A stretch of 37,057 nt of DNA. It comes from a virus. Lineage: Duplodnaviria; Heunggongvirae; Uroviricota; Caudoviricetes. The position numbers were made by a program, and so were the translations under genes. The stretch covers positions 1 to 37,057 of IMG/VR virus record IMGVR_UViG_2648501920_000014; one strand, 5' to 3'. Below are positions 6,968-26,533 of this stretch, piece by piece. Under the pieces are notes generated by a model, which did not search any database, was not told the DNA's origin, and worked only from the letters and a program-made list of their open reading frames with translations. Every line of letters starts with the position of its first letter. The stretch's first letter is position 1.

Positions 6968-6979
6968 GTGACATGTCAC
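6968..6979. repeat. 12-bp perfect palindrome GTGACATGTCAC (copy A)
   Basis: Identical palindrome also at 24071-24082 and 26522-26533; this copy lies between the plus-strand accessory island and the minus-strand lipoprotein gene. Confidence 0.5.
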
Positions 6980-6982
6980 GAC

Positions 6983-7396
6983 TTATAAAGATGACTGATA
7001 TTTTACAACTCTGTTCATGGCATCTTTTTTCACCGAGCTGATATCAGTTCTTATTTTGGCTTCGTCATTACTGCTTATCATGCTATTAATTTTTTGCACT
7101 GACATGCCGTTTCTTTCAGCCATTGCACATACAGCAGCATCGTATGAAGAACTCGCTGCGATGGATATCACCTTGTTACACTCAAACACAGCACCTTCAG
7201 CAATATCAGATGCCGATGAGGCTGGCTTGGTATAAGTCTTGACGTAGTGATCAATACAACTATCCTTCGCCGTCTTGGCAAGAGAAAAATCCATTTTAAC
7301 TTTGTCGCAATATGCCTTATCAACACCGTCATAAACATCATAGGATGTCGAGCAAGCGGATATCAAAAATACCGATAACAGCAATAATTCCTTCAT
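6983..7396 (-). CDS. Lipoprotein (137 aa), AT-rich accessory gene
   Basis: ATG at 7396; signal peptide MKELLLLSVFLISAC with lipobox ISAC; visibly lower GC than flanking virion genes. Confidence 0.6.
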   Translation of the reverse strand: MKELLLLSVFLISACSTSYDVYDGVDKAYCDKVKMDFSLAKTAKDSCIDHYVKTYTKPASSASDIAEGAVFECNKVISIAASSSYDAAVCAMAERNGMSVQKINSMISSNDEAKIRTDISSVKKDAMNRVVKYQSSL

Positions 7397-7405
7397 TGTT
7401 GTTCC

Positions 7406-9880
7406 TTATTGCGGAGTGACATCCTGAGGTCGCCACCAGTATGTCTGGTTAAACTCTTTCTTCGAACGTTGCTCCATTTTACGCAAATAGCCTGGTGAAA
7501 AATACTCCTGCATCTGATTAAAGATCATGTGATCGAGAGCCGCCTTCAAGTACCAGAGATTCGCACCAGGCATCAAACCTTTCCCAAGCTTAACCAGATC
7601 ACCACCAGTCTGCTCATTCTTCCCTTCCACAGCATTTAACGGTATGCCCTGAGCAATCTTCACTACGTCATCAACCAGACCAGCTACCGGGCCAAGCATC
7701 GACGCTAGTGCGCCGCTCCCGTACCTGGTGTGGTCAGAGAAAAGAAAATCACCATACAACCCTGCCCCACCACCTTTTAAAAATGCATTTATCCAGAATT
7801 TAACCATGTTGTCACCGGTCATTTCTTTTGGATTTCTCCCATTAATAAGATCAGTAATCTGCATGGAAAGAGCACCAAGCATGGTTGTGCTTGCTAAAAA
7901 CGTTGCTATATATGCCGCACGCCCACCAGCAGACGGCATCCCCATAGCTCTATGCCAGTGACGCATAACTACCGAGATAGGGAACGATTTAAACAGGAAA
8001 ACACTTCTCGTTAATTCACCTTTCCATGTTCCACGCTGAAGACCAGACCCTACGAACATCTGTTCACGTGCGCCCGGTGTAATAACAGCCATATCAACTT
8101 CTTCAGTTACGGCACCGAGCAGTTTACGCATTGCCTCAAATTTCACGCGTTCAGGCTCACCAAGATGTTTAACTGCTGAATCAGGGATACGCATAATGCT
8201 TTCCGGTGTCAGCATCGTATTATTACCGTTCCCCCAGTCCTCCTGTTGCGCCAGCTTCCATACGCTCCAGTCTGTGTCAGTAATCCCTTTGCTTTTCAGG
8301 ATACGAAAATCAGAGTCATCGAGGCTACGAAGGTCTGGTGTCCGTGACACTACTTCTCCCAGGCTTCCCATCATGGTTACGCCATAGGCGCGCTTGTGCG
8401 CATCTGACCATGCTGTAAGCCCACTGGCACGCATTACCGCCGTTGCCGCCCAACGAGACACAGACGGCCCCATATTATCCATCGCCCAGCGGTTAACGCT
8501 GCCAAGTAGAGATTCCATCGCCAGGCCAGCGCGGCGCGCCCGCGCAAGCTCAGTACGGTTCGTTGGATCCATAGCTTCAAGCTGGTTGCGAAATAACTGG
8601 TTCATTGGAAGGTTGGTAACCTTCGCAGACAGATACATGGTTCCAAGATCAGAGAACGATGACAGCAACGCGGATCCGAGTCTGCTGGCAACCAGCCAGT
8701 TGCGGATATTGTCAGACCATCGCGCGATGTGCGGATTCGCTACAGGCTGTGTTTTTCCGGAAATAAAGTTGTACAGGTTCTCTGTTTTGTTCGCCAGACG
8801 CTCGACGCTACCGGTTTTACTCGGGTTAGCTGTTGCCGTTTCTGCCTTCACCTGATCAAGAAGAGAGCGGAAAACATGATCGGGGTTTGGGCCATATGTT
8901 TCCACCAGTGCAATATCTTTACTGATACCTTCAAGGTGACCGACCATGATTTCCCATAGAGAGCGATCGCCATAAAGTTGCTGATATTGCAGATAGGAAT
9001 CTGCATCTTTGAAATGTATCTGTCGTGATGCATTACCACGGTTAGCACGTGCGCCGGAAATTCGCATTCCGGTATCAGTAAGCTTATTCAGCCCACCAGT
9101 AGCGATCGTGTTATAAGCCTCTCCAAGAAATGCAGACAACTCGGCATCGTTCATCAGTTGTCCATCGGCTCGGGTATAATATTTGCGATCCAGCTTACCT
9201 ATAACATCGCTAACCCATTTATCTTTTGATACCGCCCCAACCTTTTCCATAGAATGATGTTGAGGGATCCCCCAGTTTTCGAGATAGCCAATGTCCCCAC
9301 CAGCATCATTAAACCGGCGGCGCAGCAGCTCTGTAACTTCTCTCCACGCCTTAGCACCTTTTCTTGCTTTAGCATTGCCAGTATTTTGCCCCCGCATTTC
9401 ATATACCAGGTCACGTACGCCCGCTTCATCTTCAAACAGACCAAAAAAGCGAGGATCAACTGCTTCGAATGCCTCCTGCAATTGACTCAATGCATAATCA
9501 CGGGTGGCTTTTGTTCTGGATTCAACAGAGAGGAAATTCGATTTACCGTCTGCATTAAAAGCAATAGTACGGTTAAGAGCGCCAAGTTTCCCATCAGCCC
9601 CTTGATAGCTATTGATAAATTTATCCAATCTCTGACGTGCGGCTATAGTGAGGGCCACACGACGTTTCTTTAATGCCGCTTCTCGCTGTAATTCTTCAGA
9701 TGCCAATTGTGCTGCACGATACAACCGTTCTGATTCGGAAAGTTGTCGCCACGACATCGGGTCATCACGAGCAATGGAGCGCATATTTCGATAAATGCGG
9801 TCTTCAATGTTCTGTATTTCTCGCGCCGTTAACGTGCGCTGCGCCGCCTGCTGGACCGCTTGTATACATTCCTGTCTCAT
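7406..9880 (-). CDS. Large virion internal / ejection protein (824 aa)
   Basis: ATG at 9880; long ORF in the structural operon between internal-protein genes and the tail fibre region; assignment by position and size only. Confidence 0.5.
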   Translation of the reverse strand: MRQECIQAVQQAAQRTLTAREIQNIEDRIYRNMRSIARDDPMSWRQLSESERLYRAAQLASEELQREAALKKRRVALTIAARQRLDKFINSYQGADGKLGALNRTIAFNADGKSNFLSVESRTKATRDYALSQLQEAFEAVDPRFFGLFEDEAGVRDLVYEMRGQNTGNAKARKGAKAWREVTELLRRRFNDAGGDIGYLENWGIPQHHSMEKVGAVSKDKWVSDVIGKLDRKYYTRADGQLMNDAELSAFLGEAYNTIATGGLNKLTDTGMRISGARANRGNASRQIHFKDADSYLQYQQLYGDRSLWEIMVGHLEGISKDIALVETYGPNPDHVFRSLLDQVKAETATANPSKTGSVERLANKTENLYNFISGKTQPVANPHIARWSDNIRNWLVASRLGSALLSSFSDLGTMYLSAKVTNLPMNQLFRNQLEAMDPTNRTELARARRAGLAMESLLGSVNRWAMDNMGPSVSRWAATAVMRASGLTAWSDAHKRAYGVTMMGSLGEVVSRTPDLRSLDDSDFRILKSKGITDTDWSVWKLAQQEDWGNGNNTMLTPESIMRIPDSAVKHLGEPERVKFEAMRKLLGAVTEEVDMAVITPGAREQMFVGSGLQRGTWKGELTRSVFLFKSFPISVVMRHWHRAMGMPSAGGRAAYIATFLASTTMLGALSMQITDLINGRNPKEMTGDNMVKFWINAFLKGGGAGLYGDFLFSDHTRYGSGALASMLGPVAGLVDDVVKIAQGIPLNAVEGKNEQTGGDLVKLGKGLMPGANLWYLKAALDHMIFNQMQEYFSPGYLRKMEQRSKKEFNQTYWWRPQDVTPQ

Positions 9881-9885
9881 TTAAT

Positions 9886-11688
9886 TTAACCTCTCAAGAA
9901 ACACGCCACAGCAACATCAAACAGGCTGGAATCCTGTATTGCCTGCTCACTTTCCCTGTTCGCTTCATCCAGTACTTCACGCGCACTGCGCGATTGTGGA
10001 TTACCATCATCATCCAGCACGGTGATTATCATGTCAGGTGATTCAATCAGCGAGTCTTCAGCTATGCGCAGATCAATATCTCCTGCCTGATCTGACATCA
10101 TTTTTTGTTCTGCCTGTTGCAATATTTTATCAGGCTCAAAAGGAGCTACTTCGTCTGGCGTCCTGACCTCTGCTGTTTTATAGAATGAAACAGCCTGAGC
10201 ATTAAGTTCACTTTCTGCCTGCTGTCTCCGAGCCAGTTCTGCTCGAGCTTCAAAAAACTGACCGCCAGGCTCGTGCGGTGCCAACGCGTTACGGGAAAAT
10301 TCCAGGCGTTCTTGTGCCTGCCGGATTCGTTGATCAATATCGCGAAGTCTGGCCTGTTTATCTGATCGAGCACGAGACAAAGCTTTACCGCTACCGGTTG
10401 GCTCTTCTGCAAGAATTTGTGCACGCTGTTCAGTGAGATTTTCAATAATTCGTTGGCTATTAGCGATTTCAGACTGGTAAACCTGTCTATCTCCACGCGG
10501 CAAAAGCTGCGCGGCCTGTTCTTCAAGCAACCGATTTTCTATAGCGCGCGCCGTTACTCCATCATCTACAGATGACAGAGCCTCATTAACTGCCTGAGAC
10601 AGCAGACTCTTGCGCCAAGGAATTTCACTGAAAGATGCAGACTCAACAATGCTGGAAACGTCTACAGGTCTCCCCTGGCTAACATCAGACATAGCTTTTC
10701 GCAGAGCCTGAATGTGAGAATTGCGCGAAAGCACGTTGATCGGCACGCCGGGCGCAATATCAATTTCAGCATGATGAGCGGCATTCGCCGCCAGTGCAGC
10801 ATCGATATCAACTGGTGAAAAATTTGGTGCGCTTGTAGACTCGCCGCGAGAGTTAATAAATCTGCCGACACCACCAAACGCCACCCCAAGAACAGCATCA
10901 ATAGCAATTGCCTGTCGATCCAACACATCATACTGGTTAGCCATTTCGCTATAGCCACCATCACGAAGTGTTTTTGCAGTAAGCCCACGCTGTGCCATAC
11001 CGAACGCAATATTTGTACCTGCGGCATAGGCAATATCTGGCGTTGCACGTACTGCTGTTGCTGCGGCGCGTCGCACTGAACTCTCACCCGTCCGCGCAAG
11101 CTGAGCCGCCACACCTTCCGCCAGCGCACCACCAGCACGTAACCCGAGGCTCATAGGGATCAGTGTTCCGGCACCAGCAGTAATGCCCTGCACTAATCCC
11201 GCTTCCTGCGCCGTCCTGAAATCAGCACCCTGTGCTGTCAGCCGTTCAAACTCAGAAAAACCCTGTAGCGAAGTTACCGCCGCTGCACCTCCGACAGGAC
11301 CACCGAGCGTTGTACCGACAACAGCCTGCCCGCCCATATCGAACAACCCATAAAGAACCTGCCCGGCGGTTCCGGTTGTCGCGGCATCAGGCGTCAGCCG
11401 CTTAACCTGCTGCTCTGCTAGTTTTCTCTGCTCGGCAATGTATGAAACTGAAGTATCATTGAGCGATGTGTTTTCGTTAATAAACTGAGCAATCGGGGAT
11501 ACGATTTTATCCATCCCTGCCCATAGCAACTGATCTGGCTTTGCCACCAGCCCGGAGTACAAACCAGACAATGCCGCTCCTACAGCATTGTCGAAAAAAC
11601 CAACATAGCTGTTAAAGCCAGCTGGATTTGATGCTGCTTCGTCAAGCTGCTGATTCTGGCTTACTGGATTAAGGCCAAAGTAACTCAT
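9886..11688 (-). CDS. Virion internal protein (600 aa), Gly/Ala-rich
   Basis: ATG at 11688; glycine/alanine-rich central region; structural operon context. Confidence 0.5.
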   Translation of the reverse strand: MSYFGLNPVSQNQQLDEAASNPAGFNSYVGFFDNAVGAALSGLYSGLVAKPDQLLWAGMDKIVSPIAQFINENTSLNDTSVSYIAEQRKLAEQQVKRLTPDAATTGTAGQVLYGLFDMGGQAVVGTTLGGPVGGAAAVTSLQGFSEFERLTAQGADFRTAQEAGLVQGITAGAGTLIPMSLGLRAGGALAEGVAAQLARTGESSVRRAAATAVRATPDIAYAAGTNIAFGMAQRGLTAKTLRDGGYSEMANQYDVLDRQAIAIDAVLGVAFGGVGRFINSRGESTSAPNFSPVDIDAALAANAAHHAEIDIAPGVPINVLSRNSHIQALRKAMSDVSQGRPVDVSSIVESASFSEIPWRKSLLSQAVNEALSSVDDGVTARAIENRLLEEQAAQLLPRGDRQVYQSEIANSQRIIENLTEQRAQILAEEPTGSGKALSRARSDKQARLRDIDQRIRQAQERLEFSRNALAPHEPGGQFFEARAELARRQQAESELNAQAVSFYKTAEVRTPDEVAPFEPDKILQQAEQKMMSDQAGDIDLRIAEDSLIESPDMIITVLDDDGNPQSRSAREVLDEANRESEQAIQDSSLFDVAVACFLRG

Positions 11689-14198
11689 TGCGGAATATCT
11701 CCGGAGAATCTCTGACGTTTCTGTGTCAGATTAAGAACAACGGGAGAACCATCATCTTTCAGCAGATAACCAGTACCAAGTTTCACCAGGTACTGACTAT
11801 CGCCGTAACTTTGCAAACCATACTGACCAGGCGGTGTTTTTATCCCGGAGCCGACAACTTGTTCATTCCAAGCCTGATTAACCTGCTTATCGAATTGCTC
11901 TGCAGACATTCCCCACGGCAAAAGGACATTCCCCATTCCGTTATAGTCATGCACGCCACCTGTAGCTACGTTAACAGCCTGTTTCCAGATATCAGTGTCA
12001 ATTTCGCCTGATATCACGCCTTTTTTCGCCATCACACCAGCGTAATAGTCCTTTGCGATCTCGTATGCCATTGATGCCCCCTGAGCATCACCAGCAAATG
12101 CATCCTTCACCATGTCAGAAAACTCAAGGCGAAGATCAGCATCTTTAGGCATCGGAATACCTTTCGCATCATCAGTACCTTTACGAGCCGCCGCGCCAGT
12201 AAGAATTGTCTGCGCAGCGGTTTCAGGAGACACGGAAACATCCGGATTAAACCAGTTTTTTTCTGCCAAAATACCACCAGGCTTGTCCATCAGTATCCCG
12301 GCAACGGCAGCAGATGGAGCGTTGGCACTGATCTGCTGTAGTGCTGACATATACACCTGCCCACCACCAGTGCTCTGCCTGATGGTATCGAGATATGCTG
12401 CCTGTTGGGAAACTGGAGCATCACGAAAAAAAACACCGATCTGATTGGCCTCGTCTTTGGAAAAGAACGTCAGTGGAGTGCCATATGACTTAGCAAGGTC
12501 ACTGACCTGAGCGGCACGCAAGGCAACGCTCTGTCCAAAGTTATCCTTATTGCTCATGTCGATAGGCTTTGCCTGTCCAGAGGCAAGAGAGAACTGCACA
12601 GGATCAGACTGCCGCTGCTTTATCACCTGATTTGCAGCCGAAACAACGTTGTCATAAAGAGCTGCGCGAGCCGCATAACCCTCCCCTGTCTCACCAGTAT
12701 CCGGGCGTAATTGCTCAACATATGCTGTAATGCTGCTTGTCGGCATGTTGCGGAAAGAGCCTATATACTGTCCGGCGATCTGCGTATTCTTAAACTCGGT
12801 ATATCGCAGGTTTCCTTCTCTGACTCCATAAGCTGCAATAAAATCAGCCTCACCAGGTGGGTTAGGAAATTCAACGCCACGCATATACGCAGCCGTCGCA
12901 TCGCGAACCTGGCTGTCAATCATCGTTTTATATTCAGCCTGCTGCTGCCGACGCAGTTGATCCGCCTGCCGCATAAAACTTGCCTGAGCCTCAGGAGATG
13001 CCGCATCGAATGCTGCATTACCGGTATAGCGTTTGGTGTTGGTTGGAATTGTTGATAAACCAAGTGCTGCACTGACACCAGCAGTTAACTGCTGATCACT
13101 GTATGGCTGGCTACCGTTCTCATGATGGATAATGGCTGCACAAAGCGCCTTCAGGGTATCAGGATTTGATGCATCGAGAGGCTCATCAGCAGAAACGCCA
13201 AGTTGTTCGCACACTGCTTTGATATACGACATAGTGTCATTTTTATCAGTAGGCGGTGCCCAGCGATTAATTATCTCGCTGACGGTATCAATACCCTGCC
13301 GCTGATACGACATCAGGTTCCGCCCTAATGCACGAATCCCGTGTTCAGGTGTTTCGAATTTAGCAAATCTACCATCATCACCGGTCTGGCCTACCCACGG
13401 ATTAGTTTTGCTGTATTCGAGATTTCCGGGGTTATTGTTGCGTATGCCACGGACACGCTCGGAAGAGCCACTATCTGTTACAGCACGGCGAGCTCCAGCA
13501 GCAGTATCACTTAACTCGCCATTACTTTGGATGAATGCGGTCGCATTGTTTGCCGACCACTGGGACAATGCTGCATCAGCAACCTTCTCTTTAAACTCGA
13601 TTTTCTTGGCCTGTATTTGCTCGTCGCTCCAGCCATGTGCAGCACCGTACTCCTCAATTTGCTGGAAAGTTTGCTTATTAGCCAATACGTATGCGGCGTT
13701 GTCGCCATACAATGCTGCGGCATTTTTACCATTGTTCAGCAGCGTAGCCTGAAACTGGCCTTCTTCGTAGGCATTTATTTGCCCTATCTCGTGCCGCCCG
13801 GCCTGCGTAGTGAACTGAATGCGCTGCTGCTGCGCCTGCTGCATGAAAGCATTACGAGCCTGTTCATCCGGCAGCGACATAGCCAATTGTTCGACCTGAG
13901 CATCAAACTGCTGCGTATACTCATGGCCTTTTCCAATAGCATTTTTCCCTTTCAGGTTAAGCAATCCTGTTTCAGGATTATTCAGCAAATCACTGCTTAT
14001 CTGACTGAGGTTAAGAGATGCCTCCTGAGCCAAGGCAATATTGGCACGCTGTTTTGCCTGCCCCAAAACATCAATTGCCTCTGCCCCTGCCCGAACAAAA
14101 GCATCACCAATACCTGGCTGAGAAAACGTCTGCAAGCCTGCTGACTGAACTCCACGGCTCTCAACCTGACGTCCGGATACTGTTGGTACGACTGGCAT
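11685..14198 (-). CDS. Large virion internal protein (~837 aa)
   Basis: ATG at 14198 with GGAGG SD and TAATG overlap with the upstream gene (track ORF extends to GTG 14273). Confidence 0.5.
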   Translation of the reverse strand: MPVVPTVSGRQVESRGVQSAGLQTFSQPGIGDAFVRAGAEAIDVLGQAKQRANIALAQEASLNLSQISSDLLNNPETGLLNLKGKNAIGKGHEYTQQFDAQVEQLAMSLPDEQARNAFMQQAQQQRIQFTTQAGRHEIGQINAYEEGQFQATLLNNGKNAAALYGDNAAYVLANKQTFQQIEEYGAAHGWSDEQIQAKKIEFKEKVADAALSQWSANNATAFIQSNGELSDTAAGARRAVTDSGSSERVRGIRNNNPGNLEYSKTNPWVGQTGDDGRFAKFETPEHGIRALGRNLMSYQRQGIDTVSEIINRWAPPTDKNDTMSYIKAVCEQLGVSADEPLDASNPDTLKALCAAIIHHENGSQPYSDQQLTAGVSAALGLSTIPTNTKRYTGNAAFDAASPEAQASFMRQADQLRRQQQAEYKTMIDSQVRDATAAYMRGVEFPNPPGEADFIAAYGVREGNLRYTEFKNTQIAGQYIGSFRNMPTSSITAYVEQLRPDTGETGEGYAARAALYDNVVSAANQVIKQRQSDPVQFSLASGQAKPIDMSNKDNFGQSVALRAAQVSDLAKSYGTPLTFFSKDEANQIGVFFRDAPVSQQAAYLDTIRQSTGGGQVYMSALQQISANAPSAAVAGILMDKPGGILAEKNWFNPDVSVSPETAAQTILTGAAARKGTDDAKGIPMPKDADLRLEFSDMVKDAFAGDAQGASMAYEIAKDYYAGVMAKKGVISGEIDTDIWKQAVNVATGGVHDYNGMGNVLLPWGMSAEQFDKQVNQAWNEQVVGSGIKTPPGQYGLQSYGDSQYLVKLGTGYLLKDDGSPVVLNLTQKRQRFSGDIPQ

Positions 14199-14743
14199 TA
14201 TAATCCTCCGGGTAATCTGGTTCCTGCTGCTGCTCCGATTGGCGCAGGGGTGCTTTGAGTAAACGGACTCCACGTCCCACCAAACATCTGGTACGCACCG
14301 TATGCCTTCAGAGGCGCAGTGAGCAATGTTGTTGCTGCTCCCACATTCCCCTGTTTACGGGCTGAACTGGCTTCTGCTTTATAGTTGGCAGCCTGAACCT
14401 GATAACCGTAAGCCTCGCGTTGCGCGTTATTCACCGTCGTCAGAGAATCAAGAGCGCCAAACTGGGCAGTGTCGCCAAATATATCCAGCGCGTTACCTGT
14501 AGATAAATCAGCGCCGGTAGCCCCCATTGTCGCCGCCTGTGTACCAAGCCGCTGTCGGGTCTCTCTGCGCCGTTGCTCAGCTTCAGCGTTACCTCTGTTT
14601 ATTGCATCATTTGCCTGAGCTGTGGCTATATCTGCGTTCGCTTCTGCAACCTTCGAGGCATACTTTCCCTGTTGGTACTGGGTGTATGCCTGAATGCCAC
14701 TCATGGCGAGCATTGCGCCACCAGCAATAACCGGATCGCACAT
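14198..14743 (-). CDS. Virion protein (181 aa), Ala/Gly/Gln-rich
   Basis: ATG at 14743; tightly packed in the structural operon. Confidence 0.5.
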   Translation of the reverse strand: MCDPVIAGGAMLAMSGIQAYTQYQQGKYASKVAEANADIATAQANDAINRGNAEAEQRRRETRQRLGTQAATMGATGADLSTGNALDIFGDTAQFGALDSLTTVNNAQREAYGYQVQAANYKAEASSARKQGNVGAATTLLTAPLKAYGAYQMFGGTWSPFTQSTPAPIGAAAGTRLPGGL

Positions 14744-15207
14744 TATTTTCTCTCCATGTGAAATCTGTGGAAATTAAGACCAAGAGCACCATAAGGCGCG
14801 GCTTCTTCAAGCCTGAATCCAAGCCAGTGCAGCCATGCTTTGGCAACATGGTTTCGCTCGTCGACGTAGTTTTCCAGGCGCGGATAAACTGCCAGCATCT
14901 GCTGCAATACAGGGCGGCAGTGGCGCAGAAATGTCTTCTGATATTTTTCAATACGGCTGGTTCCTACCAGCCAGGGCGTACCATTGCCACCGATCATTGA
15001 CGCCGGAGATACGCCAAACATGGTTACCAGTTCTCCGTTCGCAAATCCTGACCAGGCCATAGTCGCAGTGCGAAGACCAACACGCAGCGCATCTTCGGTA
15101 GTCATCAGCGATACCGCATACAGTTCGTCAATATCAGCCTGACGAACATCCGGCAAAATCATCTGAAGATGCTCTTCGGTGGCGGGAATAATTTGAACAT
15201 CGATCAT
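14743..15207 (-). CDS. Virion-associated protein (154 aa)
   Basis: ATG at 15207; 1-nt overlaps with both neighbours. Confidence 0.5.
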   Translation of the reverse strand: MIDVQIIPATEEHLQMILPDVRQADIDELYAVSLMTTEDALRVGLRTATMAWSGFANGELVTMFGVSPASMIGGNGTPWLVGTSRIEKYQKTFLRHCRPVLQQMLAVYPRLENYVDERNHVAKAWLHWLGFRLEEAAPYGALGLNFHRFHMERK

Positions 15208-18283: not shown

Positions 18284-18339
18284 AAGTTTCTATACTCCTG
18301 CAATAAAGGGGCCGAAGCCCCTTGTCTGATTCGCGAGGC

Positions 18340-18675: not shown

Positions 18676-18685
18676 CAATATCACC

Positions 18686-19123
18686 TTAACCAGTTACTTT
18701 TGAGCGGATCGGGTACGGCGTATTGGCATCAACATCAAGATTGATACCCGCAGTGAATTTGCCAGCCGTTAGTGGGCCAGTTGCGACGGAGTAGTTAACA
18801 CGCAGATATCGCTGAACACCGGCAGGCACCTTTGCAGAAACAACTCGTTTACCTGCTGTCAGGGTAGCCTTTGCCAGTGCGCCACTATCATAAATAGTGG
18901 ACCATAAGCTGTTATTCTCACTCGTCTGCAACTGGATGTTTACAGTTGCCTCACCACTTGCCGTGGCGGCTTCGTTAACCAGCGCCCAAAACTCAAGCGG
19001 GTAACCCACGCCGATATCGCGACGATTTCCATCAATTGGACCTAGATCGATTACGTCAGTAGAAGCCGCGGTATCAGTTACCGCCTGTGCTTCGGAGAAC
19101 ATCAACAGTTTGTCGGTGATCAT
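18686..19123 (-). CDS. Hypothetical protein (145 aa), possible capsid decoration protein
   Basis: ATG at 19123; immediately downstream of the major capsid gene; function by position only. Confidence 0.4.
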   Translation of the reverse strand: MITDKLLMFSEAQAVTDTAASTDVIDLGPIDGNRRDIGVGYPLEFWALVNEAATASGEATVNIQLQTSENNSLWSTIYDSGALAKATLTAGKRVVSAKVPAGVQRYLRVNYSVATGPLTAGKFTAGINLDVDANTPYPIRSKVTG

Positions 19124-19174
19124 CTTCTTTCTCCATTAGTGGGTCTGTTACGACCCACTGGTTAATAACAGGCG

Positions 19175-20167
19175 TTACACCACACGGGCTTCTGTTTCCA
19201 GAAGCGCATCAGTTTCACGGATTGGTACACCACGGAATGAAGTCCACCACTCGCCTTCTGTCTCTTTTACGCTGATCGCCAGAGATGTTTTCTCCAGAGA
19301 TTGCAGATCAAGAGCCTGGCCTACAGTGCGGTTCATGTAGAACACCGGGCGACCCATTCCACGGTTTGGAATGCGATGCAGTGCTTTAACCATCAACTTC
19401 GCAATATTTGCGGCAGAGGAAGGTTCTGAAAGATTGCTGACATCGATGTTTGCAATGCGAACAACATAACGCCAGTCACGCAGAGCAAGTCCGTTGTCCC
19501 ATTTGTAATGGGTACGGTAGCCTTCGTACTTGCCGCCATTAGCATCTTCCAGTGTCACCTGGCCTTTATCTTCCATCTGAATGCCAGCCTTCTGCCCTTT
19601 CGGGAAGATGCCATGCACGGTGTTTTCGCCCCACACCACTAACCAGATTGAGGTGTTATCTGTGCCCGTGCCACCAGCATCAATGATGTTCTGAGCATTA
19701 CCTGCAGACAGGCTGGAATAGCGGGAGGACAGTCCCATAAACTGCTGAGGGTTAACGCTGGAATCACCATAAAACAGCGTCTGCGCCATCTGCTGATTCA
19801 TCGCTTCAATAAATGCGCGGTCTTCAGACAGGCGGAATTCGGCGGTATTGCCGTTCAGATCAGCCAGTGACTTATCGACTTCAGCATAGGTTTCCAGCAT
19901 GCCAACGGAATCGGTTACCTGCACTGTGGTTGATTTGCTTGGCTGTACGCCATAGTTCAGCAAACGCCAGGTAGCTGAAGGTAAACCAGAACGAATGGTG
20001 GTTCGGTGTCCGGTAGGAAGGTTCCCTTCGACAAAAGGCATATCCTGAAGGATCGGGTTAGTTTGACCGAGAAGCTCGATAATCTTATCGACTTTCCCGT
20101 TTGGATCGACGCGCTTACCCCAGTCAGCCAGCGTTAGCGCAGTTAAGCCTTTAACAGCCATTGTCAT
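19175..20167 (-). CDS. Major capsid protein (330 aa)
   Basis: ATG at 20167; position after portal and scaffold genes; size typical of podovirus capsid proteins. Confidence 0.65.
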   Translation of the reverse strand: MTMAVKGLTALTLADWGKRVDPNGKVDKIIELLGQTNPILQDMPFVEGNLPTGHRTTIRSGLPSATWRLLNYGVQPSKSTTVQVTDSVGMLETYAEVDKSLADLNGNTAEFRLSEDRAFIEAMNQQMAQTLFYGDSSVNPQQFMGLSSRYSSLSAGNAQNIIDAGGTGTDNTSIWLVVWGENTVHGIFPKGQKAGIQMEDKGQVTLEDANGGKYEGYRTHYKWDNGLALRDWRYVVRIANIDVSNLSEPSSAANIAKLMVKALHRIPNRGMGRPVFYMNRTVGQALDLQSLEKTSLAISVKETEGEWWTSFRGVPIRETDALLETEARVV

Positions 20168-20175
20168 TTCCTCTC

Positions 20176-20871
20176 TTATTTGCCATAGAGCACTTCGGCC
20201 GCACTACGCTGGCCTTCATTACCACCGGTGACCATGCCATCTTCAGACATCGCCTTTCCGATTTTCACGAACGTTTTGACCAGATCAGGGTGATTACCCA
20301 GCCCGGTGGTGTTCAGATATTCTTTGAGTTCAGGTGTCCCGAACTGGTCAAGCGCACGCTGTGCGGCGCTAAGGTTAGAAATCAACTTGTCGCCACCGAT
20401 TTCTTTGTCAGCTTTTACATCCGCAGCCCACTGCTCGGTTGTTTTCTGCCAGGCTTCTGCCTGGCGCTGCTGAACACCTGCCAGAATCTTCGGATAAGCA
20501 TCAACCAGCTTTTGCGCTTGCTCGTTGGTCAGGTTAAGTTCTCGCGCCACCGGCTCGAATTCCTTCAACGCTTCTGTATCCAGCTCTACGCCTTCGGCAG
20601 CCTGAAACTCGTACTTCTCAGGCGCACCCTCTGGTTTATCGCCGTCCTTTTTTTCATCCTGCTTATCGTTTTCAGGCTTTTTGTCATCAGCAGGTTTATC
20701 GCCATCAGCAACAGGTTGTGGCTTATCACCTTCCTGTTGTGATGGATCACCAACTGGAGCAGGGTTATCACCTGCAGGCGCTGACGGTTCTGACGCAGCC
20801 GGAGCTGCTCCACCATAGACTGGTTGCTCATTGCAAAGACGGCTATACAGCAAACGCTCAAATAAATTCAT
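20176..20871 (-). CDS. Scaffolding protein (acidic, Pro/Ala/Asp/Lys-rich)
   Basis: ATG at 20871 with AGGAG SD (track ORF starts at GTG 20877); low-complexity acidic N-terminal half and helical C-terminal half; between portal and capsid. Confidence 0.55.
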   Translation of the reverse strand: MNLFERLLYSRLCNEQPVYGGAAPAASEPSAPAGDNPAPVGDPSQQEGDKPQPVADGDKPADDKKPENDKQDEKKDGDKPEGAPEKYEFQAAEGVELDTEALKEFEPVARELNLTNEQAQKLVDAYPKILAGVQQRQAEAWQKTTEQWAADVKADKEIGGDKLISNLSAAQRALDQFGTPELKEYLNTTGLGNHPDLVKTFVKIGKAMSEDGMVTGGNEGQRSAAEVLYGK

Positions 20872-20873
20872 GA

Positions 20874-21170
20874 TCACTCCTGTTCACTGGCCTCTTTGGC
20901 CATCTTCAAATACTGTTCAGGGCAATGCGCCATAACGCGCTGAAACAGTTCCAGCGCCAGATTGCGTTGCCCCTCATTAAATGCCATTGCCATAGCGTCC
21001 ATCGGTGAGATAGCGGAAAACACACGGCCTTTCTCCAGCACCGACCAGACAACGCGACGCCCCTGTTCACTGCTCATGACAAAGCGAATGTCATCAATTT
21101 CACGCTGTGCCATGTCACGTTGCTTACGGGCGTTTTCTTCTTTCAGTTGATCGTCTTCGTAATCTGTCAT
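20874..21170 (-). CDS. Hypothetical protein (~98 aa)
   Basis: ATG at 21170 overlapping portal stop (ATGA); track ORF starts at GTG 21185. Confidence 0.45.
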   Translation of the reverse strand: MTDYEDDQLKEENARKQRDMAQREIDDIRFVMSSEQGRRVVWSVLEKGRVFSAISPMDAMAMAFNEGQRNLALELFQRVMAHCPEQYLKMAKEASEQE

Positions 21171-22846
21171 TGTGATTGCCCACACTGACCACTAACTGCA
21201 TTCGCCATAGCTGACAAAACACTCGGATCCGAAGTTTTAGCTTCGCTTAGCGTCTTGGCACCCTGTGCCGCCGCCATCCCCATCGCCATCATTTGTTGCT
21301 GCTGTTGTTGCTGTGCCCGTTGCTGGCGAGCCTGCTCAACCTGTTCCTGCGGAACAATGACGGTTGGAGACACTCCGGACATATCAGCGAATGCATCGAT
21401 CGCCTGATCAACGTTGAGTTTGTCGAGAGCTTCTGGTTTCGCTTGCGCAAGTTGACCAATGAAGTTAACCGTGGACGCCAGACTGGACAGGCCGATAGAC
21501 TTCTGCGCCTGAGCCATGACGGAAATGTATTCGACCTTCAGGGGCATACCTTCCATCGCGTCAGGCGGTGGCGGCAGCATGTTTTTACGCACCATCATCG
21601 AGAAAGCGCGGTCAATGAGAGGGTTAAGACATTCGTCGTTCAGACGCTCCAGAACCGGCCCCAACATCAGAAGTTTTTCTTCTTTCATTTCGATCACCGC
21701 TTCAACAGGCATCGAGCGGGTATTGATGTTCTGCAACATCATGAACAGATCGACAAAGTAGGCGCTGTTAATGATTTGACGAGTGTCCTGAATGTCTGCT
21801 ACCAGATCTGCTGTACTGGGGTTAACCAGATAAGCAGGCCTGAAACCATCCTGACCAGTAATCTGATCGATATACGTGATGTCGCCAGGAAGAAGGGAGG
21901 CGCGCTGATTCTTGAGGGAAGTCGGAGCAACCATCGGCGGATTGGTGGCTTTATCAATCAACTGCGACTTGCGCTTCTGGAGAAGCTGCAATGCCTTAAC
22001 AGGTCCAAGCGCCAGCATACCCGGGCATGATGATCCATAAACATCTTCGCCATTAACTTCCCAGCGCGGAGCCATAATTGGAAACTCATCAAATCCGGAC
22101 TCACGCAACAACTTGTCGTTATCGCCACCAACCTCGTAATAAACCGATTTGAATGGCTTGTTCTTGCTATCCAGCTTCGATGTATCGCGGTCAATGTTCG
22201 GGTAAACCGAATGCATCACGTCAATCCACTTCTCGTAGGTGCCGCTTTCCCACATGCTTTTTACGGATTCGCTGACGTTATTTAGCCCGAACTCCTGAAC
22301 AAGCTGACGAACAGTCATAGAGAACTTGCGAAAACAGGTGTCCACACTGCCACGAGGTGAGTTAGCAAGGTAGTAACTGCCTATCGGGAATGGCATTGTG
22401 CGAATGATGTCCTCGTCATCCTCCAGCACCGCCATTGCGCCAGTGCTGTATGTGCCGAGGCTTCCGTATAACTGCGGAAGAGACTGGTAGAGATTCGACT
22501 TATTGAACATATCGTTCATGCGGTTCTGCACCGCCTCGAGCCACAACTTAACAGGACCATAATCCATCATTTCAGGATCTGGCGTAGCCAGGCGAAACCA
22601 CGGACGCGCAGGGCTTGTGATGCCTGACATCATGCCGCTGGCGAGAGTGCGCGCCGCCATAGTCCCGGTCGAATCAATAATGCGTGTATTGCGTCGATCG
22701 TTACGGTTGACCTCAGAAGTCAGAAAGCGGGAACCACGCGGGTTGATGTAATCACTCAACTCGCGCCAGTGCGGCTCGAACGACTGACGCTCGCTTTCAA
22801 GTTGTGCGAACTGTTTGTTCAATCGCTCTTTAGTTGTTTCCGCCAT
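21167..22846 (-). CDS. Portal (head-to-tail connector) protein, 559 aa
   Basis: ATG at 22846 with GGAG SD; size and position next to terminase; Gln-rich C-terminal tail. Confidence 0.7.
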   Translation of the reverse strand: MAETTKERLNKQFAQLESERQSFEPHWRELSDYINPRGSRFLTSEVNRNDRRNTRIIDSTGTMAARTLASGMMSGITSPARPWFRLATPDPEMMDYGPVKLWLEAVQNRMNDMFNKSNLYQSLPQLYGSLGTYSTGAMAVLEDDEDIIRTMPFPIGSYYLANSPRGSVDTCFRKFSMTVRQLVQEFGLNNVSESVKSMWESGTYEKWIDVMHSVYPNIDRDTSKLDSKNKPFKSVYYEVGGDNDKLLRESGFDEFPIMAPRWEVNGEDVYGSSCPGMLALGPVKALQLLQKRKSQLIDKATNPPMVAPTSLKNQRASLLPGDITYIDQITGQDGFRPAYLVNPSTADLVADIQDTRQIINSAYFVDLFMMLQNINTRSMPVEAVIEMKEEKLLMLGPVLERLNDECLNPLIDRAFSMMVRKNMLPPPPDAMEGMPLKVEYISVMAQAQKSIGLSSLASTVNFIGQLAQAKPEALDKLNVDQAIDAFADMSGVSPTVIVPQEQVEQARQQRAQQQQQQQMMAMGMAAAQGAKTLSEAKTSDPSVLSAMANAVSGQCGQSQ

Positions 22847-22860
22847 TTCAATGACTCCGG

Positions 22861-23067
22861 TTACTGACCAAGCAGCGTTTTACCGCTGGTATTAGCGGTT
22901 GATGTGTCGCCCTGAGAACCGGTAAGCAGCGTAGAACTACGACCAGCAGCAGCGCGACGGCGACGTGTTTCTTCGTCGCGGGCATCAACAACGGCGGCAT
23001 CCTGCTCCTGTGGTGCTGCCTGAACTTCTGGTGTTGCAGGCACTGATGGTGAGCTACCCATGCACAT
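22861..23067 (-). CDS. Small acidic Ala-rich protein (68 aa), unknown
   Basis: ATG at 23067 preceded by the same GGAGTCATTGA leader as the portal gene; stop TAA at 22861-22863. Confidence 0.35.
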   Translation of the reverse strand: MCMGSSPSVPATPEVQAAPQEQDAAVVDARDEETRRRRAAAGRSSTLLTGSQGDTSTANTSGKTLLGQ

Positions 23068-23157
23068 ATCAATGACTCCGTACGCAATTAAATTATTACC
23101 AATTTAACCACATATGATTTATTTATCGTAGAAGGTTGACATTTAACGCGTGAATTA

Positions 23158-23172
23158 TTACCTTTCAGGTAA
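23158..23172. promoter_or_regulatory. Operator-like inverted repeat TTACC-TTTCA-GGTAA
   Basis: 15-bp dyad about 90 nt upstream of the 23067 start; a TTGACA hexamer lies at 23136-23141. Confidence 0.4.
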
Positions 23173-23494
23173 CCAAAGAGCTCATTCTGGTTACTAACCT
23201 GACTGGCTTGTCGTTAAATTAAACAGGTGGAGTGAGCTTTTATTTTGAGCAGTACGGCGTATGGCACATGCGCCGATAGCGGTCTGGATACGTTTAAGGG
23301 GCACCCTCCCTTGCTCGGGCAAACGAACCAGGTAGCCGGAATGTGCAAGTCGAGCGGTTTTATTCCGCGCACGGGGATTCACCATCCCGGCGATTCGGTG
23401 TGACGCCTCGGAAGAGACGAGGGTACAACGATGAGAGCATTTATGGAGCCGCGACAAAGTGTGGCGCCTTAACAGGCTAAGTGCTCTCAGCGTT

Positions 23495-23571
23495 GTGGCA
23501 TTAGCTCAGTCGGACAGAGCAACCGCCTTCTAAGCGGTTGGTCGCAGGTTCGAATCCTGCATGCCACGCCA
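23495..23571 (+). tRNA. tRNA-Arg (anticodon TCT, reads AGA)
   Basis: Cloverleaf read by hand: acceptor GTGGCAT/ATGCCAC, D-stem GCTC/GAGC, anticodon stem ACCGC/GCGGT with loop CTTCTAA, T-arm GCAGG-TTCGAAT-CCTGC, discriminator G, encoded CCA. Confidence 0.85.
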
Positions 23572-23614
23572 GAATCACGCCTAAGGACCGTGATGCCAGA
23601 AGTTCCAGGGGCTT

Positions 23615-23657
23615 GGCGGTGATGGTTTCCCTTGAAGGGCTATCACCGCCCTTTTTA
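23615..23657 (+). terminator. Rho-independent terminator downstream of the tRNA
   Basis: 9-bp stem GGCGGTGAT/ATCACCGCC with structured loop, followed by CTTTTT. Confidence 0.6.
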
Positions 23658-23734
23658 CAGCAGGACGCCATTGCGATGACTTCATGCTGTAAACCAGTAC
23701 AGCCACGGAAGGCATAACTCATTGCTTCCAGTTC

Positions 23735-23758
23735 GCCCGGTTCGCCGGGCATTTTTTT
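23735..23758 (+). terminator. Hairpin GCCCGG-TTCG-CCGGGC + T7 run (terminator or attenuator) immediately before the DUF2829-like gene
   Basis: 6-bp GC stem with TTCG tetraloop followed by ATTTTTTT; the SD AAGGTGA starts right after it. Confidence 0.45.
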
Positions 23759-23769
23759 AAGGTGAGATT

Positions 23770-24066
23770 ATGAGCGAAACATCAACAGTATCTTTCTCCA
23801 CTGCTTTGTCATCACTCAAAGATGGTAAGCGCATTGCACGTGCCGGATGGAATGGGAAAGGCATGTATCTGCAATTAGTTCAGCCACCGCAATCAGCCAC
23901 TCCGAATGATTGGCGCTATGACGTTACATGTGGTGACGAGTATACATTTGTACCTGGCGTTAAACTTCTACCGTGGATTGGGATGAAAACTGCTGACGGT
24001 TGCTTTGTACCGTGGCTGGCATCTCAAACCGATCTGCTATCTGATGACTGGATTGTAATTCAATAA
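23770..24066 (+). CDS. DUF2829-like small phage protein (98 aa)
   Basis: ATG at 23770 with AAGGTGA SD; motifs LKDGKRIARAGWNGKGMYL, PWIGMKTADG, PWLASQTDLLSDDW match the DUF2829 pattern from memory. Confidence 0.65.
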   Translation: MSETSTVSFSTALSSLKDGKRIARAGWNGKGMYLQLVQPPQSATPNDWRYDVTCGDEYTFVPGVKLLPWIGMKTADGCFVPWLASQTDLLSDDWIVIQ

Positions 24067-24070
24067 CACC

Positions 24071-24082
24071 GTGACATGTCAC
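24071..24082. repeat. 12-bp perfect palindrome GTGACATGTCAC (copy B), preceded by ATAACACC
   Basis: 5 nt after the DUF2829-like stop; flanking ATAACACC also present at copy C; followed by hairpin AGCCAGC-CTATGA-GCTGGCT. Confidence 0.5.
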
Positions 24083-24156
24083 AAACAGCCAGCCTATGAG
24101 CTGGCTTTGTTTTATCCTCATCAGAGGATATCAACGACATTATCCCCACCAGCGGA

Positions 24157-25632
24157 TTAAGCATAGGGATCGTAATCTGTGATGGCCTTGCCTTGCTGGT
24201 TCTGCTGCCCGGGAATTCGCAGACGCTTCGACACAGGGAACGCAAACGTCAGCAGTAGCGCATCGCCTTTACCAGGCGAACGCCCAAGCCGCTCCTTGAT
24301 ATCTTCCTTCGGTTCGATAACGATTTTACCGTCCACTCGAACTTTGTACTCTGCCGCCGACAGATCGTCCGCTGTTTCCTGGTCATCCAGCATCCCGCCC
24401 AGCCTCAGCCATGTCTTGCATGAGTTGAACATCTCCCCACGCTTGTTGAGCATCTGCTGGTCAGTAGACGCGCCACCGAACGGAACAAGTTGCCATGTGC
24501 GCCCCCAACCATCACCGATTGACTTCAGACCGGTACCGTAACCAAAGTCGATGAACACTGCGTCAGCCTGATACAGGTCTTCAAAGTCAGCGATACGCTT
24601 CGCCATAATCAGATCGTCGGTAGTCTTGTTGCCAGTCCACAGCACCTTACTGTGTAGCCCCTGCCGCAGGTATATCACCGCGTCATCAACGCCTGAATAT
24701 GCCGGGTCAACACCGATTATCACCGGAGCATGCGCCACCTGCGCAGCGGTTACCACCCGTTTCATTGCCTCATCAGTAAGACCGGTAGGGATAAACTGCA
24801 ATTCAGATGCATCAGGGAATATGCCGCGCACACGGATTTTAACGAAGTCGCTGTCTTCCCCGTAGTCATCAACCCATTTCTGCAACTGCTGTTTGTTAGT
24901 GCCTTCCACCGTCCGGCTGTCAATCTGCGCAGTTTTCCAGCGGTGTTTATATTTGCGGAAACATTCACGGAATCGCCCGGTATTACGCGTCGGGTTTCCG
25001 AACGCCACCCAGATAATCTCAGTGTCTTCGTCAGTTAGCGCACCTTCGGCAACTTCCCACACCAGATCCGCAATGTTCGACGCTTCATCGAATACCACGA
25101 TGATGCGTTTGCGCTCGTTGTGTAGTCCGGCGAATGCCTCAGTGTTGTGCTCAGACCAGGGGATTGCGTCAGCTCGCCACCGCTTGTCGTGCCCAGGATC
25201 ATTGCTGTACATCGCGGTAGCGGTACAGGTAAACCAGTCTTTCGTGATAGCAAGGTTCGACCACTTGATAATTTCCGGCCAGGTCTTCGTTCGTAGCTGG
25301 TTGTCGGTGTTGGCGGTCACCACGACCTTACAATCCTCGCAAGTGGACATGCCCCAGTTGATCAGCATTGAGATGAATGCGGATTTACCAATACCGTGAC
25401 CAGAAGCACGTGCCAGCATAAGCGGCTGATATCGCGTCTCTGGATTCTGCAGGTGATCACGTATCTCTCGGAACGCATCGGCCTGCCACTGACGTGGACC
25501 GGTGGCATGTGCCAGTTCAGTACCCTCTTCCCCCCACGGGAACGCATAGAGGGCATAGCCAAGCGGATCGTGAGTGAACCCTGCAATATCCTCGATCAAC
25601 TGCTCTTCAGGAGATAACGCTGTATCTGTCAC
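24157..25632 (-). CDS. Terminase large subunit
   Basis: GTG start at 25632 overlapping terS stop (GTGA); Walker A-like GHGIGKS; 491 aa with ATPase then nuclease layout. Confidence 0.85.
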   Translation of the reverse strand: MTDTALSPEEQLIEDIAGFTHDPLGYALYAFPWGEEGTELAHATGPRQWQADAFREIRDHLQNPETRYQPLMLARASGHGIGKSAFISMLINWGMSTCEDCKVVVTANTDNQLRTKTWPEIIKWSNLAITKDWFTCTATAMYSNDPGHDKRWRADAIPWSEHNTEAFAGLHNERKRIIVVFDEASNIADLVWEVAEGALTDEDTEIIWVAFGNPTRNTGRFRECFRKYKHRWKTAQIDSRTVEGTNKQQLQKWVDDYGEDSDFVKIRVRGIFPDASELQFIPTGLTDEAMKRVVTAAQVAHAPVIIGVDPAYSGVDDAVIYLRQGLHSKVLWTGNKTTDDLIMAKRIADFEDLYQADAVFIDFGYGTGLKSIGDGWGRTWQLVPFGGASTDQQMLNKRGEMFNSCKTWLRLGGMLDDQETADDLSAAEYKVRVDGKIVIEPKEDIKERLGRSPGKGDALLLTFAFPVSKRLRIPGQQNQQGKAITDYDPYA

Positions 25633-26225
25633 TGATTACCATCCTGACGTTCTTTGAGTCGCTTCCTGGCTGCCGCTATGCGATCAGCGATTGTCACATT
25701 CACATTAACATCCATGCGTTCTTTGAACGCGTTGACGTCGACGTGCTTACCAATCAGTTCGAGGTTCTTCACCTTGTCAGGCCATTTAATTTTTTTGAGG
25801 ATTGTCTCTATCGAATCCTCGTTCATGTTCATGATGGTCGATGACAGATCAAAGCCACTAAGCGTAGTGCGCCAGATTTTCGGCCACTCGCGGATTGGCT
25901 TAAGGCTCCCATCGTCGTTGAGGATATCAATCACGTCCATCTGGTCGATCTCCACCAGGCGCATGAGAACGTAATCAGCACTGACACGCATTCGTTTGTT
26001 GCGCTCTTCCATCAACTCGGCAATCCGTTTTTGAATGCGTTCATCGCGCATCATGACACTGGCTTTAACTGCCGCTGTATTTGGGGAGAATCCTGCGTTA
26101 ATCGCTGCCTGAGTCTGGTTTTCAGGCGTTTTGATGTATGACTGACAATAAGCCTCCTGCATTGCTGTGAGCGGCTTAAATTGCGTTGATTTGCGTTTAT
26201 AGGTTTTAGGTTCAGCAGGCATCAT
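25629..26225 (-). CDS. Terminase small subunit
   Basis: ATG at 26225 (track ORF extends to TTG 26303); HTH-like segment TAMQEAYCQSYIKTPENQTQAAINAGFS; directly upstream of terL. Confidence 0.6.
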   Translation of the reverse strand: MMPAEPKTYKRKSTQFKPLTAMQEAYCQSYIKTPENQTQAAINAGFSPNTAAVKASVMMRDERIQKRIAELMEERNKRMRVSADYVLMRLVEIDQMDVIDILNDDGSLKPIREWPKIWRTTLSGFDLSSTIMNMNEDSIETILKKIKWPDKVKNLELIGKHVDVNAFKERMDVNVNVTIADRIAAARKRLKERQDGNQ

Positions 26226-26257
26226 AACCACCGTGGTAATAGTTACCGTTGTGGTAA
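26225..26257. promoter_or_regulatory. Two adjacent operator-like repeats (TAACC-ACCGT-GGTAA and TTACC-GTTGT-GGTAA) at the terS start
   Basis: Sites at 26225-26239 and 26243-26257, overlapping the terS start codon and its SD. Confidence 0.4.
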
Positions 26258-26299
26258 TAGTACCATGCAAAATAAAGCCGCCATAGTTGGCGGCAGTAT

Positions 26300-26512
26300 T
26301 CAAAGCCCATCAAATTCATCGTAAAAACTCTCGTCAAGATACCCTTCCCATTTACCGCGAATGAAAATTACATCCTCGCCGCAAGGGTGCTGACTGTCGA
26401 TAACTATATCCCTCCTGGAGCAACCATACTTATGCATGAGAAATTTAATCTCTTTCGGAAAATTTGCTGAGTTATCTCTCATATCTTCAAGGTCGTAGCG
26501 TATTTTTGGCAT
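26300..26512 (-). CDS. Hypothetical protein (70 aa)
   Basis: ATG at 26512 with AAGGTG SD (track ORF starts at GTG 26533 inside the palindrome); stop TGA 26300-26302. Confidence 0.45.
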   Translation of the reverse strand: MPKIRYDLEDMRDNSANFPKEIKFLMHKYGCSRRDIVIDSQHPCGEDVIFIRGKWEGYLDESFYDEFDGL

Positions 26513-26521
26513 AACACCTTC

Positions 26522-26533
26522 GTGACATGTCAC
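26522..26533. repeat. 12-bp perfect palindrome GTGACATGTCAC (copy C), with ATAACACC nearby
   Basis: 10 nt upstream of ATG 26512 on the minus strand; shares the GGTGTTAT flank with copy B. Confidence 0.5.

Follow-up and report, generated by a model that had tools for sequence, protein, structure and literature searches.

The window analyzed here is a stretch of 37,057 nucleotides (nt), covering positions 1 to 37,057 of IMG/VR virus record IMGVR_UViG_2648501920_000014. It is a prophage of the epsilon15/phiV10 group (genus Uetakevirus), bounded by the stop of the Rz spanin gene on one side and the start of the integrase gene on the other. The late operon is on the minus strand. An exact scan found the 12-bp palindrome GTGACATGTCAC exactly three times in the window, and this element is the subject of our analysis. 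A preliminary description had placed the three copies at module junctions and offered three readings of them: a binding site for a phage factor, an RNA processing or termination element, or a recombination scar. In the order of the late operon, the copies are site 1 (copy C), site 2 (copy B), and site 3 (copy A). None is assigned to a strand.

Site 1 occupies 26521..26534, with the 12-mer at 26522-26533, and reads G-TGA-CATGTCAC on the minus strand. It holds the TGA stop (26530-26532, minus strand) of an open reading frame (ORF) with a zinc-ribbon-like end. This gene (26530..26870, minus strand; phrog_536) belongs to the epsilon15 gp49/N15 gp46 family, is a homologue of phiV10 p55, and encodes the candidate binding protein. 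It is the last gene of the early-right operon and lies directly upstream of terS. The copy ends 9 nt before ATG 26512. A gene of 70 amino acids (aa) (26300-26512, minus strand; phrog_1541) is inserted in the window between site 1 and its terminator (26277..26294, minus strand), which lies 227 nt downstream of the copy. In epsilon15, SPN1S, and Tyrion, the terminator is only 22 nt past the site.

Site 2 occupies 24070..24083, with the 12-mer at 24071-24082, and reads C-GTGACATGTCAC-A. It lies between terL and a moron of opposite orientation, so that sites 1 and 2 bracket terS and terL (24157..26303, minus strand). The moron (23770..24066, plus strand) encodes 98 aa with a Tad2-like anti-Thoeris domain (PF11195, E value of 3e-24), and the site starts 4 nt past its stop. 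An intrinsic terminator in the interval between the moron and terL, AGCCAGCCTATGAGCTGGCT with a T-run (24087..24106, plus strand), follows 4 nt past the copy.

Site 3 occupies 6967..6980, with the 12-mer at 6968-6979, and reads T-GTGACATGTCAC-G. It starts 23 nt past the stop of the plus-strand ORF 6711-6944. It is also 3 nt past the stop of the last late-operon gene (6983..7396, minus strand; 137 aa; phrog_8691). An intrinsic terminator, AGGCCGCTTTCGCGGCCT with a T-run (6950..6967, minus strand), adjoins the copy and ends the late operon; it is conserved along with the copy in relatives. All three terminators were found by a consensus scan, and two of the three sites are directly beside one. 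The spacings to neighboring genes in the preliminary description were all correct. It had overlooked the terminators next to copies A and B, the late-gene stop by copy A, and the full extent of the element. It had also reported a flank shared by copies B and C; ATAACACC does lie to the left of both, but at different offsets (0 versus 3 nt), and in the compared genomes the ATAACACC/GGTGTTAT flank is not conserved past close relatives.

Three copies are far more than expected. A third-order Markov model of the window predicts 0.0017 copies of the 12-mer, with a probability of about 8e-10 for three or more, and 100 dinucleotide-preserving shuffles of the window contained none. The earlier statement that three exact copies are unlikely by chance is borne out by these numbers. 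The only other copy in the window within one mismatch is GTGCCATGTCAC at 21107-21118. It lies within the coding ORF 20874-21185, a homologue of phiV10 p08 that directly follows the head-tail adaptor gene. Relatives keep this stretch as coding sequence, and the match is probably a coincidence.

The element is longer than the 12-mer noted first. In a set of 57 contexts distinct in sequence, which supply 114 half-sites, a pyrimidine comes just before the 12-mer in 109 half-sites, and A is the inner base in 94. These two biases define a symmetric 14-mer, Y-GTGACA|TGTCAC-R. The full element is a 14-bp perfect palindrome, Y-GTGACATGTCAC-R.

The phages epsilon15, SPN1S, and Tyrion each have the identical 12-mer at all three of these places; in Tyrion, one copy spans the record ends. 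Overall nucleotide identity of these phages to the window is about 80%, and not only the flanks but also the terminator stems diverge. phiV10 contains two exact copies and a third (site 1) with one mismatch, and TL-2011b contains two exact copies. Site 3 was found in epsilon15, phiV10, SPN1S, Tyrion, and TL-2011b, and site 2 is syntenic in every Uetakevirus examined. About 150 Escherichia coli relatives carry the 12-mer at the corresponding places. Sites 1 and 2 were read 145 times in 80 IMG/VR relatives; 132 of these instances are exact, and the others are one base off. Of a further 80 loci, 78 have site 3 with no more than one mismatch (one base off in 4 of these). Judged by this sequence comparison, the palindrome is among the most strictly conserved noncoding sequences of these genomes. 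Near the attP, the TGA stop of the Rz spanin gene is overlapped by GTGACATGTCAT in SPN1S (L004, 26722) and by GTGACATGGCAT in epsilon15 (L002, 26618). These may be a decayed fourth site, and the equivalent position falls outside the window.

The neighbors of the palindrome are exchanged while it is kept. In the E. coli relatives, unrelated sequence has taken the place of the flanks. On the moron side of site 2, at least six unrelated protein C termini occur, each with its stop exactly 4 nt from the palindrome. The 4-nt spacers at site 2 (loci L001-L092) are CACC, CGCC, CGCT, TACC, CTCT, and AGCC. In epsilon15, a TAG is kept at this register although the ORF ends 27 nt earlier. At site 3, at least four types of last gene (left), including the 137-aa gene of the window, and at least three downstream types (right) occur in many pairings around a constant palindrome and hairpin. 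Because the palindrome is fixed and its neighbors vary, the term module junction is accurate: at sites 2 and 3, the mosaic joints of unrelated genes lie right against the palindrome. It is the only sequence conserved between the swappable genes, so recombination joints come to lie at its edges.

The gp49-family gene is 112 aa long and is named only as a transcriptional regulator (phrog_536) or as hypothetical. A search with a small alignment against one genome per species retrieved 42 prophages with 35 to 86% protein identity. Their hosts include Citrobacter, Pantoea, Erwinia, Enterobacter, Buttiauxella, Providencia, Proteus, Xenorhabdus, and Rahnella. At least one motif copy was within 10 kb of the family gene in 39 of the 42. 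In about 22 of the 42, the motif holds the TGA stop of the gene or starts no more than 7 nt past it. N15 has exactly three such sites in its genome, and the gp46 stop is inside GTGACTGGTCAC. The family gene of a P2-like Yersinia phage has its stop inside GTGACGCGTCAC. In the Vibrio phage K303, whose protein has 31% identity, 23.7 kb hold three sites of the form C-GTGAC-RC-GTCAC-A, and one of these is 30 nt upstream of terS. The carriers of the motif are podo-, sipho-, and myovirus-type temperate phages of Enterobacterales and Vibrio.

The motif also occurs inside genes. In divergent homologues of the family, it is read as codons, either VTGH near the C terminus or RDMS between two domains. It lies within codons 205 to 208 (VTSH or VTCH) of the N15-type repA and is kept there in 21 N15-like loci (L086, N15, 33237; L132, 5733). 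This copy hints that replication of the plasmid prophage is controlled by the same factor. In Providencia, Xenorhabdus, and Rouxiella prophages, the motif is in the 3' part of a gene for a CII-like activator (phrog_163), as codons R-D-M-S. The neighboring codons have diverged and the 12-mer is intact in these loci (L098, L107, L115, L117, L119, L120, and L126). A further copy appears to lie in a putative pemI-like antitoxin gene, read from the sequence alone. Among 56 distinct contexts, the TGA of the motif closes an open frame of at least 60 codons in 21, and the motif is 0 to 10 nt past a stop in 19; these are counts of frames, not of confirmed genes.

The two bases at the center of the palindrome vary with the subtype of the protein. 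We scanned IMG/VR with fully specified 14-mers of the AT-core and the N15-type TG-core. Where the fragment held the family gene, all 24 AT loci encoded an epsilon15-type protein. Among the TG loci, 24 of 28 encoded an N15-type protein and the remaining 4 an intermediate type. The core is identical in all copies of one locus. The homologous repA codons follow the same pattern: 20 N15-type loci read GTGACCAGTCAC (VTSH), and L132, with an epsilon15-type protein, reads GTGACATGTCAC (VTCH). The two other sites of L132 are also AT. In an alignment of the family, Lys at the second position of a predicted strand goes with the AT core, in the pattern xK-h-E-h-x-h-D (about 85 unique proteins). Arg at the same position goes with TG/CA cores in three subfamilies, and the K303 protein has Gln there and RC cores. 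This co-variation is what would be expected if a paired strand read out the center of the palindrome directly.

The fold of the protein is probably a ribbon-helix-helix (RHH). An AlphaFold2 model from a 93-sequence alignment had a predicted local distance difference test (pLDDT) score of 83. It contains a basic helix (residues 5 to 18), an extended segment (19 to 29), two helices (30 to 43 and 52 to 74), a Cys-rich region, and a short C-terminal helix. Its only matches were weak ones to RHH proteins, with MatP ranked first. A model from a shallow alignment had a pLDDT of 60 and no Foldseek match. Searches of Pfam, NCBIfam, and PDB sequences returned nothing but a weak match to the model of YbfE, a LexA regulated protein family that we take to be RHH-like. 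There was no Pfam domain and no Pfam RHH match. The sequence-profile signal between the gp49 family and MatP in hhalign was not significant. For this reason, we grade the fold no higher than probable and treat the resemblance to MatP as a lead, not as membership.

On balance, we think that the palindrome is a dispersed DNA-binding site for the gp49-family protein. Of the earlier readings, the binding site for a phage factor is favored by the conservation across genera, the tie to a single gene family, and the co-variation of core and subtype. The element would be a cis-acting double-stranded DNA site of 14 bp with the half-site Y-GTGAC-A. It would be recognized by a dimer of the phage's own gp49/N15 gp46-family protein, with an N-terminal basic helix, a probable RHH core, and a C-terminal Cys-rich, zinc-ribbon-like tail. 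The gene and its site would form a module, with one site on the gene's stop codon and another one or two dispersed in the genome.

The sites are not on recognizable promoters, so a classical operator does not fit. In epsilon15-like phages, they mark the ends of transcription units: the early-right operon before terS, the terL/moron junction, and the virion operon. The bound protein may be a boundary factor, acting either as a roadblock or insulator that reinforces terminators between convergent units or by bridging sites, as MatP does at matS. A boundary role of one or the other kind appears the most economical because the sites bound the terminase and virion units beside terminators between convergent units. 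Either role is a step beyond the binding itself and is suggested by the layout.

Several points weigh against binding by this protein or against these roles. The gp49 gene of the window is frameshifted by a 1-nt deletion near 26731-26736, which leaves two ORFs (56 and 46 aa), but none of the three sites is damaged. The deletion is in a C/G run, CGTCG-CCCGGG in the window and CGTCGCCCCGGG in phiV10; the gene is either a pseudogene in this prophage or the product of a homopolymer sequencing error. The co-variation may rest on only one or two independent switches and is partly explained by the physical linkage of gene and site. Neither a roadblock nor a bridge explains the sites inside repA and the cII-like gene, or the fixed 4-nt distance from the stops of unrelated morons. 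A sequence scan found no promoter-like hexamers at the sites.

We consider it doubtful, and give it little weight, that the gp49 protein and its GTGAC-N2-GTCAC sites are a phage-borne counterpart of MatP and matS, serving as a genome organizer and not as a transcription factor. The protein might then bridge two to three sites. It might instead exclude or unload host complexes of the structural maintenance of chromosomes (SMC) type, such as MukBEF or SMC-like defense systems, from replicating phage DNA. The 1-bp offset in specificity would keep it from binding host matS and keep MatP from binding the phage sites.

Binding by the gp49-family protein has to be weighed against other explanations, of which we regard two as unlikely. 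One is that the phage exploits a host protein that is shared by Enterobacterales and binds the site, either MatP on a shortened matS or some other regulator. The half-sites are identical to those of matS (GTGAC...GTCAC), and the motif is invariant over hosts from Escherichia to Xenorhabdus. The spacer, however, is 2 bp and not 3 in every instance, with a single N3 version in phages, in K303. Identity with matS, a 13-bp GTGAC-RNY-GTCAC, was rejected because all sites of the window and its relatives have the 2-bp spacer. In 200 kb of E. coli K-12 DNA, including the Ter region at 1.50-1.55 Mb, we found no exact copy, no one-mismatch copy, and no GTGAC-N2-GTCAC. The same script recovered four real 13-bp matS sites, GTGACRNYGTCAC, from this sample. 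The preliminary description had named a 12-mer common throughout the host genome as grounds for refuting its reading; this sample contains no copy and so does not refute it. The core switches with the subtype of the phage protein (N15 versus epsilon15 types), and this argues against a host factor because AT- and TG-type phages have overlapping host genera. The site is also tied to one phage gene in four unrelated phage architectures.

The other is that the palindrome is a recombination linker, retained because short conserved boundaries help neighboring modules or morons to be exchanged, or the target of a site-specific nuclease or recombinase, without a regulatory role. It would account for the mosaic joints that abut sites 2 and 3 in many flank pairings, and for the six or more unrelated morons that end at the same 4-nt register. 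The phage also encodes RecE/RecT-like recombination proteins. A length of 12 to 14 bp is short for homologous exchange, though, and the palindrome is not duplicated at both ends of a cassette. It is equally conserved in coding regions (repA, the cII-like gene, and the antitoxin) and at the gp49 stop, where no mosaicism was seen. Base identity across genera and the co-variation of core with subtype point to sequence-specific recognition. The earlier reading as a recombination scar does not hold, as the element is selected.

It is slightly less probable still that the palindrome acts as an RNA hairpin at mRNA 3' ends, nut/boxB-like or in stability or processing, and modulates terminators. The binder might then be the arginine-rich N-terminal helix of gp49, which is predicted to be basic. 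Each epsilon15-like copy is 5' of an intrinsic terminator on the T-run strand, about 40 of 56 contexts are on a stop codon or no more than 10 nt past one, and the 14-mer can fold into a 5-bp stem with a tetraloop. The hairpin is marginal, at -1.2 kcal/mol for the 12-mer and -3.6 kcal/mol for the 14-mer, with a z score that is not significant. Several hundred instances contained no compensatory stem changes; the variants are single and unpaired. C..A flanks, which cannot pair, occur in 15 of 57 contexts and are as common as pairing flanks. Asymmetric cores occur in either orientation relative to transcription, as AC/GT at the same stop position, in the N15 repA site, and in K303. Association with a terminator holds in Uetakeviruses and in only about one-third of distant loci, so it is not a universal rule; about two-thirds have no adjoining terminator. 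Together, the marginal hairpin, the uncompensated variants, the nonpairing flanks, and the two orientations favor recognition of duplex DNA by a symmetric dimer. They speak against the RNA processing or termination element proposed at the outset and led us to reject a nut/boxB-type site. The palindrome itself is not an intrinsic terminator, as its 12-mer hairpin is weak and has no U-run; the true terminators adjoin copies A and B.

Chance, or shared descent of terminator regions without a function of the element's own, is effectively refuted by the comparative data, because conserved terminators beside copies A and B could hitchhike but three copies have a probability of about 1e-9, flanks and hairpins diverge while the 12-mer does not, and the motif is present in unrelated phage types.

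Further identities were tried and rejected. The operator of the epsilon15 prophage repressor, ATTACC-N5-GGTAAT, differs from the palindrome and has its own separate sites in the window. These matches are at 4587, 23157, 26224, 26242, 28740, 31783, and 31845, upstream of the tail-fiber gene, the gp3-like gene, and terS and in the immunity region. They suggest that the repressor controls late units directly, apart from the palindrome network. A CRP site (TGTGA-N6-TCACA) had been set aside correctly in the preliminary description, since the spacer of the palindrome is 4 bp and not 6 bp; the outer T/A is present in some copies only. Integron attC sites are imperfect palindromes of 57 to 141 bp that follow each cassette ORF and require an IntI integrase. 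The phage element is 14 bp long, occurs once per cassette array and not once per gene, and is accompanied by a single integrase, that of the phage att site. A late promoter or activator site was considered on account of the -35-like GTGACA. A -10-like hexamer 17 nt downstream was seen by eye only in Salmonella, Enterobacter, and Pantoea phages, and the inserted gene of the window puts the site 200 bp from the terS promoter region, so this reading was rejected as one of general validity. An RHH operator at the promoter of a regulated gene does not fit, as the sites are at stop codons and terminators instead.

The palindrome is rare in other DNA and absent from annotation. In about 0.8 Mb of family-negative viral DNA not chosen for the core, the 12-mer occurred once. 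The curated epsilon15 record annotates repressor, IHF, RNase III, and integrase sites and has nothing at the palindrome positions. The palindrome is likewise unannotated in the records of phiV10, N15, TL-2011b, SPN1S, Tyrion, K303, and vB_YenM_56.17. A literature search for the exact 12-mer, the N15 variant, and the 10-mers found no relevant paper. The ZX5 paper deals with the repressor and antirepressor only. A GC-rich IMG/VR phage (L149, 4700-5100) contains dense GTCAC/GTGAC repeats, including GTGAC-N2-GTCAC, in an ORF of 329 aa. This cluster resembles an iteron-type origin and probably has nothing to do with the gp49 system.

Two plus-strand regions of the window end near palindrome copies. 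The island at 23495-24066, transcribed against the late operon, contains a tRNA-Arg(UCU) gene (23495-23571) and the Tad2-like gene. The cassette at 5237-6944 ends at copy A and resembles the P22 immI region in position. It contains an apparent Bro-N antirepressor-like gene (5237-5962) and a possible YafO-type toxin homologue (6109-6690), the latter inferred from the TL-2011b annotation. Its last ORF (6711-6944, 77 aa) was searched directly and matches a moron family of membrane-associated proteins (phrog_3117/phrog_14503).

Although epsilon15 and N15 are model phages whose genomes have been curated with care, the palindrome is not annotated in the records examined. If the pairing is true, a widespread family of phage proteins gains a functional class. 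The pairing would also give a testable specificity code, Lys with AT and Arg with TG, and account for the fixed position of the mosaic joints that separate morons from core genes. Since the half-sites match those of matS, one may ask whether phages imitate the Ter-organizing system of the host or steer clear of it. The 14-mer is a practical landmark for annotating operon and moron boundaries in these prophages.

Small dimeric DNA-binding proteins with a palindromic site are known as a general kind of system. Within searchable papers and annotated records, the motif, its paired protein family, the layout in which a gene ends in its own site, the dispersal of the sites to operon ends and into coding regions, their spread among unrelated types of temperate phage, and the half-site identity with matS are new. 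Among known systems, MatP and matS share with the phage pair identical half-sites (GTGAC/GTCAC) in a short palindrome. In both, the sites are scattered, do not depend on promoters, and in some cases fall within genes. MatP uses an RHH dimer to bind (PDB 4D8J/3VEA), and matS is present in about 23 copies per chromosome, in the Ter macrodomain of the host. The phage palindrome differs in its length (12 bp, always with a spacer of 2, versus 13 bp with RNY) and in being phage borne and missing from the host sample instead of chromosomal and confined to Ter. In place of the Cys-rich tail of gp49, MatP has a four-helix bundle and a coiled coil.

RHH repressors and their operators (P22 Arc and Mnt, CopG, MetJ, and RHH antitoxins) also involve a short palindromic site. 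The phage sites differ in being away from promoters, on the stop codon of their own gene, at operon ends, and inside genes, and gp49 carries an extra zinc-ribbon-like domain. The site bound by SlmA, with the consensus GTGAGTACTCAC, is a 12-bp palindrome with the same outer GTGA....TCAC. Its inner four bases differ (CATG in the phage palindrome versus GTAC), including positions that are invariant for SlmA, and the phage palindrome does not occur in the 200 kb of host DNA.

Centromere-like dispersed palindromes such as parS, the site of ParB, are a further comparison; in Bacillus subtilis, a parS is embedded in spo0J. The phage site is likewise at the 3' end of the gene of its candidate binder, with further copies in coding and noncoding DNA. 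The protein fold and the motif are not alike, and the epsilon15-like and P2-like carriers have no ParA/ParB; these phages integrate and need no partition. The lambda Q/QBE and N/nut systems resemble the gp49 gene in position, which is last in the early-right operon before the late genes and, in epsilon15, is followed by the site and a terminator. They differ in that no conserved promoter surrounds the phage site, an inserted gene parts site and terminator in the window, other copies are at operon ends or inside genes, and the orientation data oppose an RNA site. Pfam, NCBIfam, PDB-sequence, and fold searches gave no similarity of gp49 to Q or N.

Lambdoid phages have short boundary or linker sequences at module junctions. 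Like these, the palindrome is a short conserved sequence exactly at the mosaic joints between interchangeable genes. It differs in being a strict palindrome, in its conservation across phage families and within genes, and in its tie to a single family of proteins, which argues for a function beyond supplying homology.

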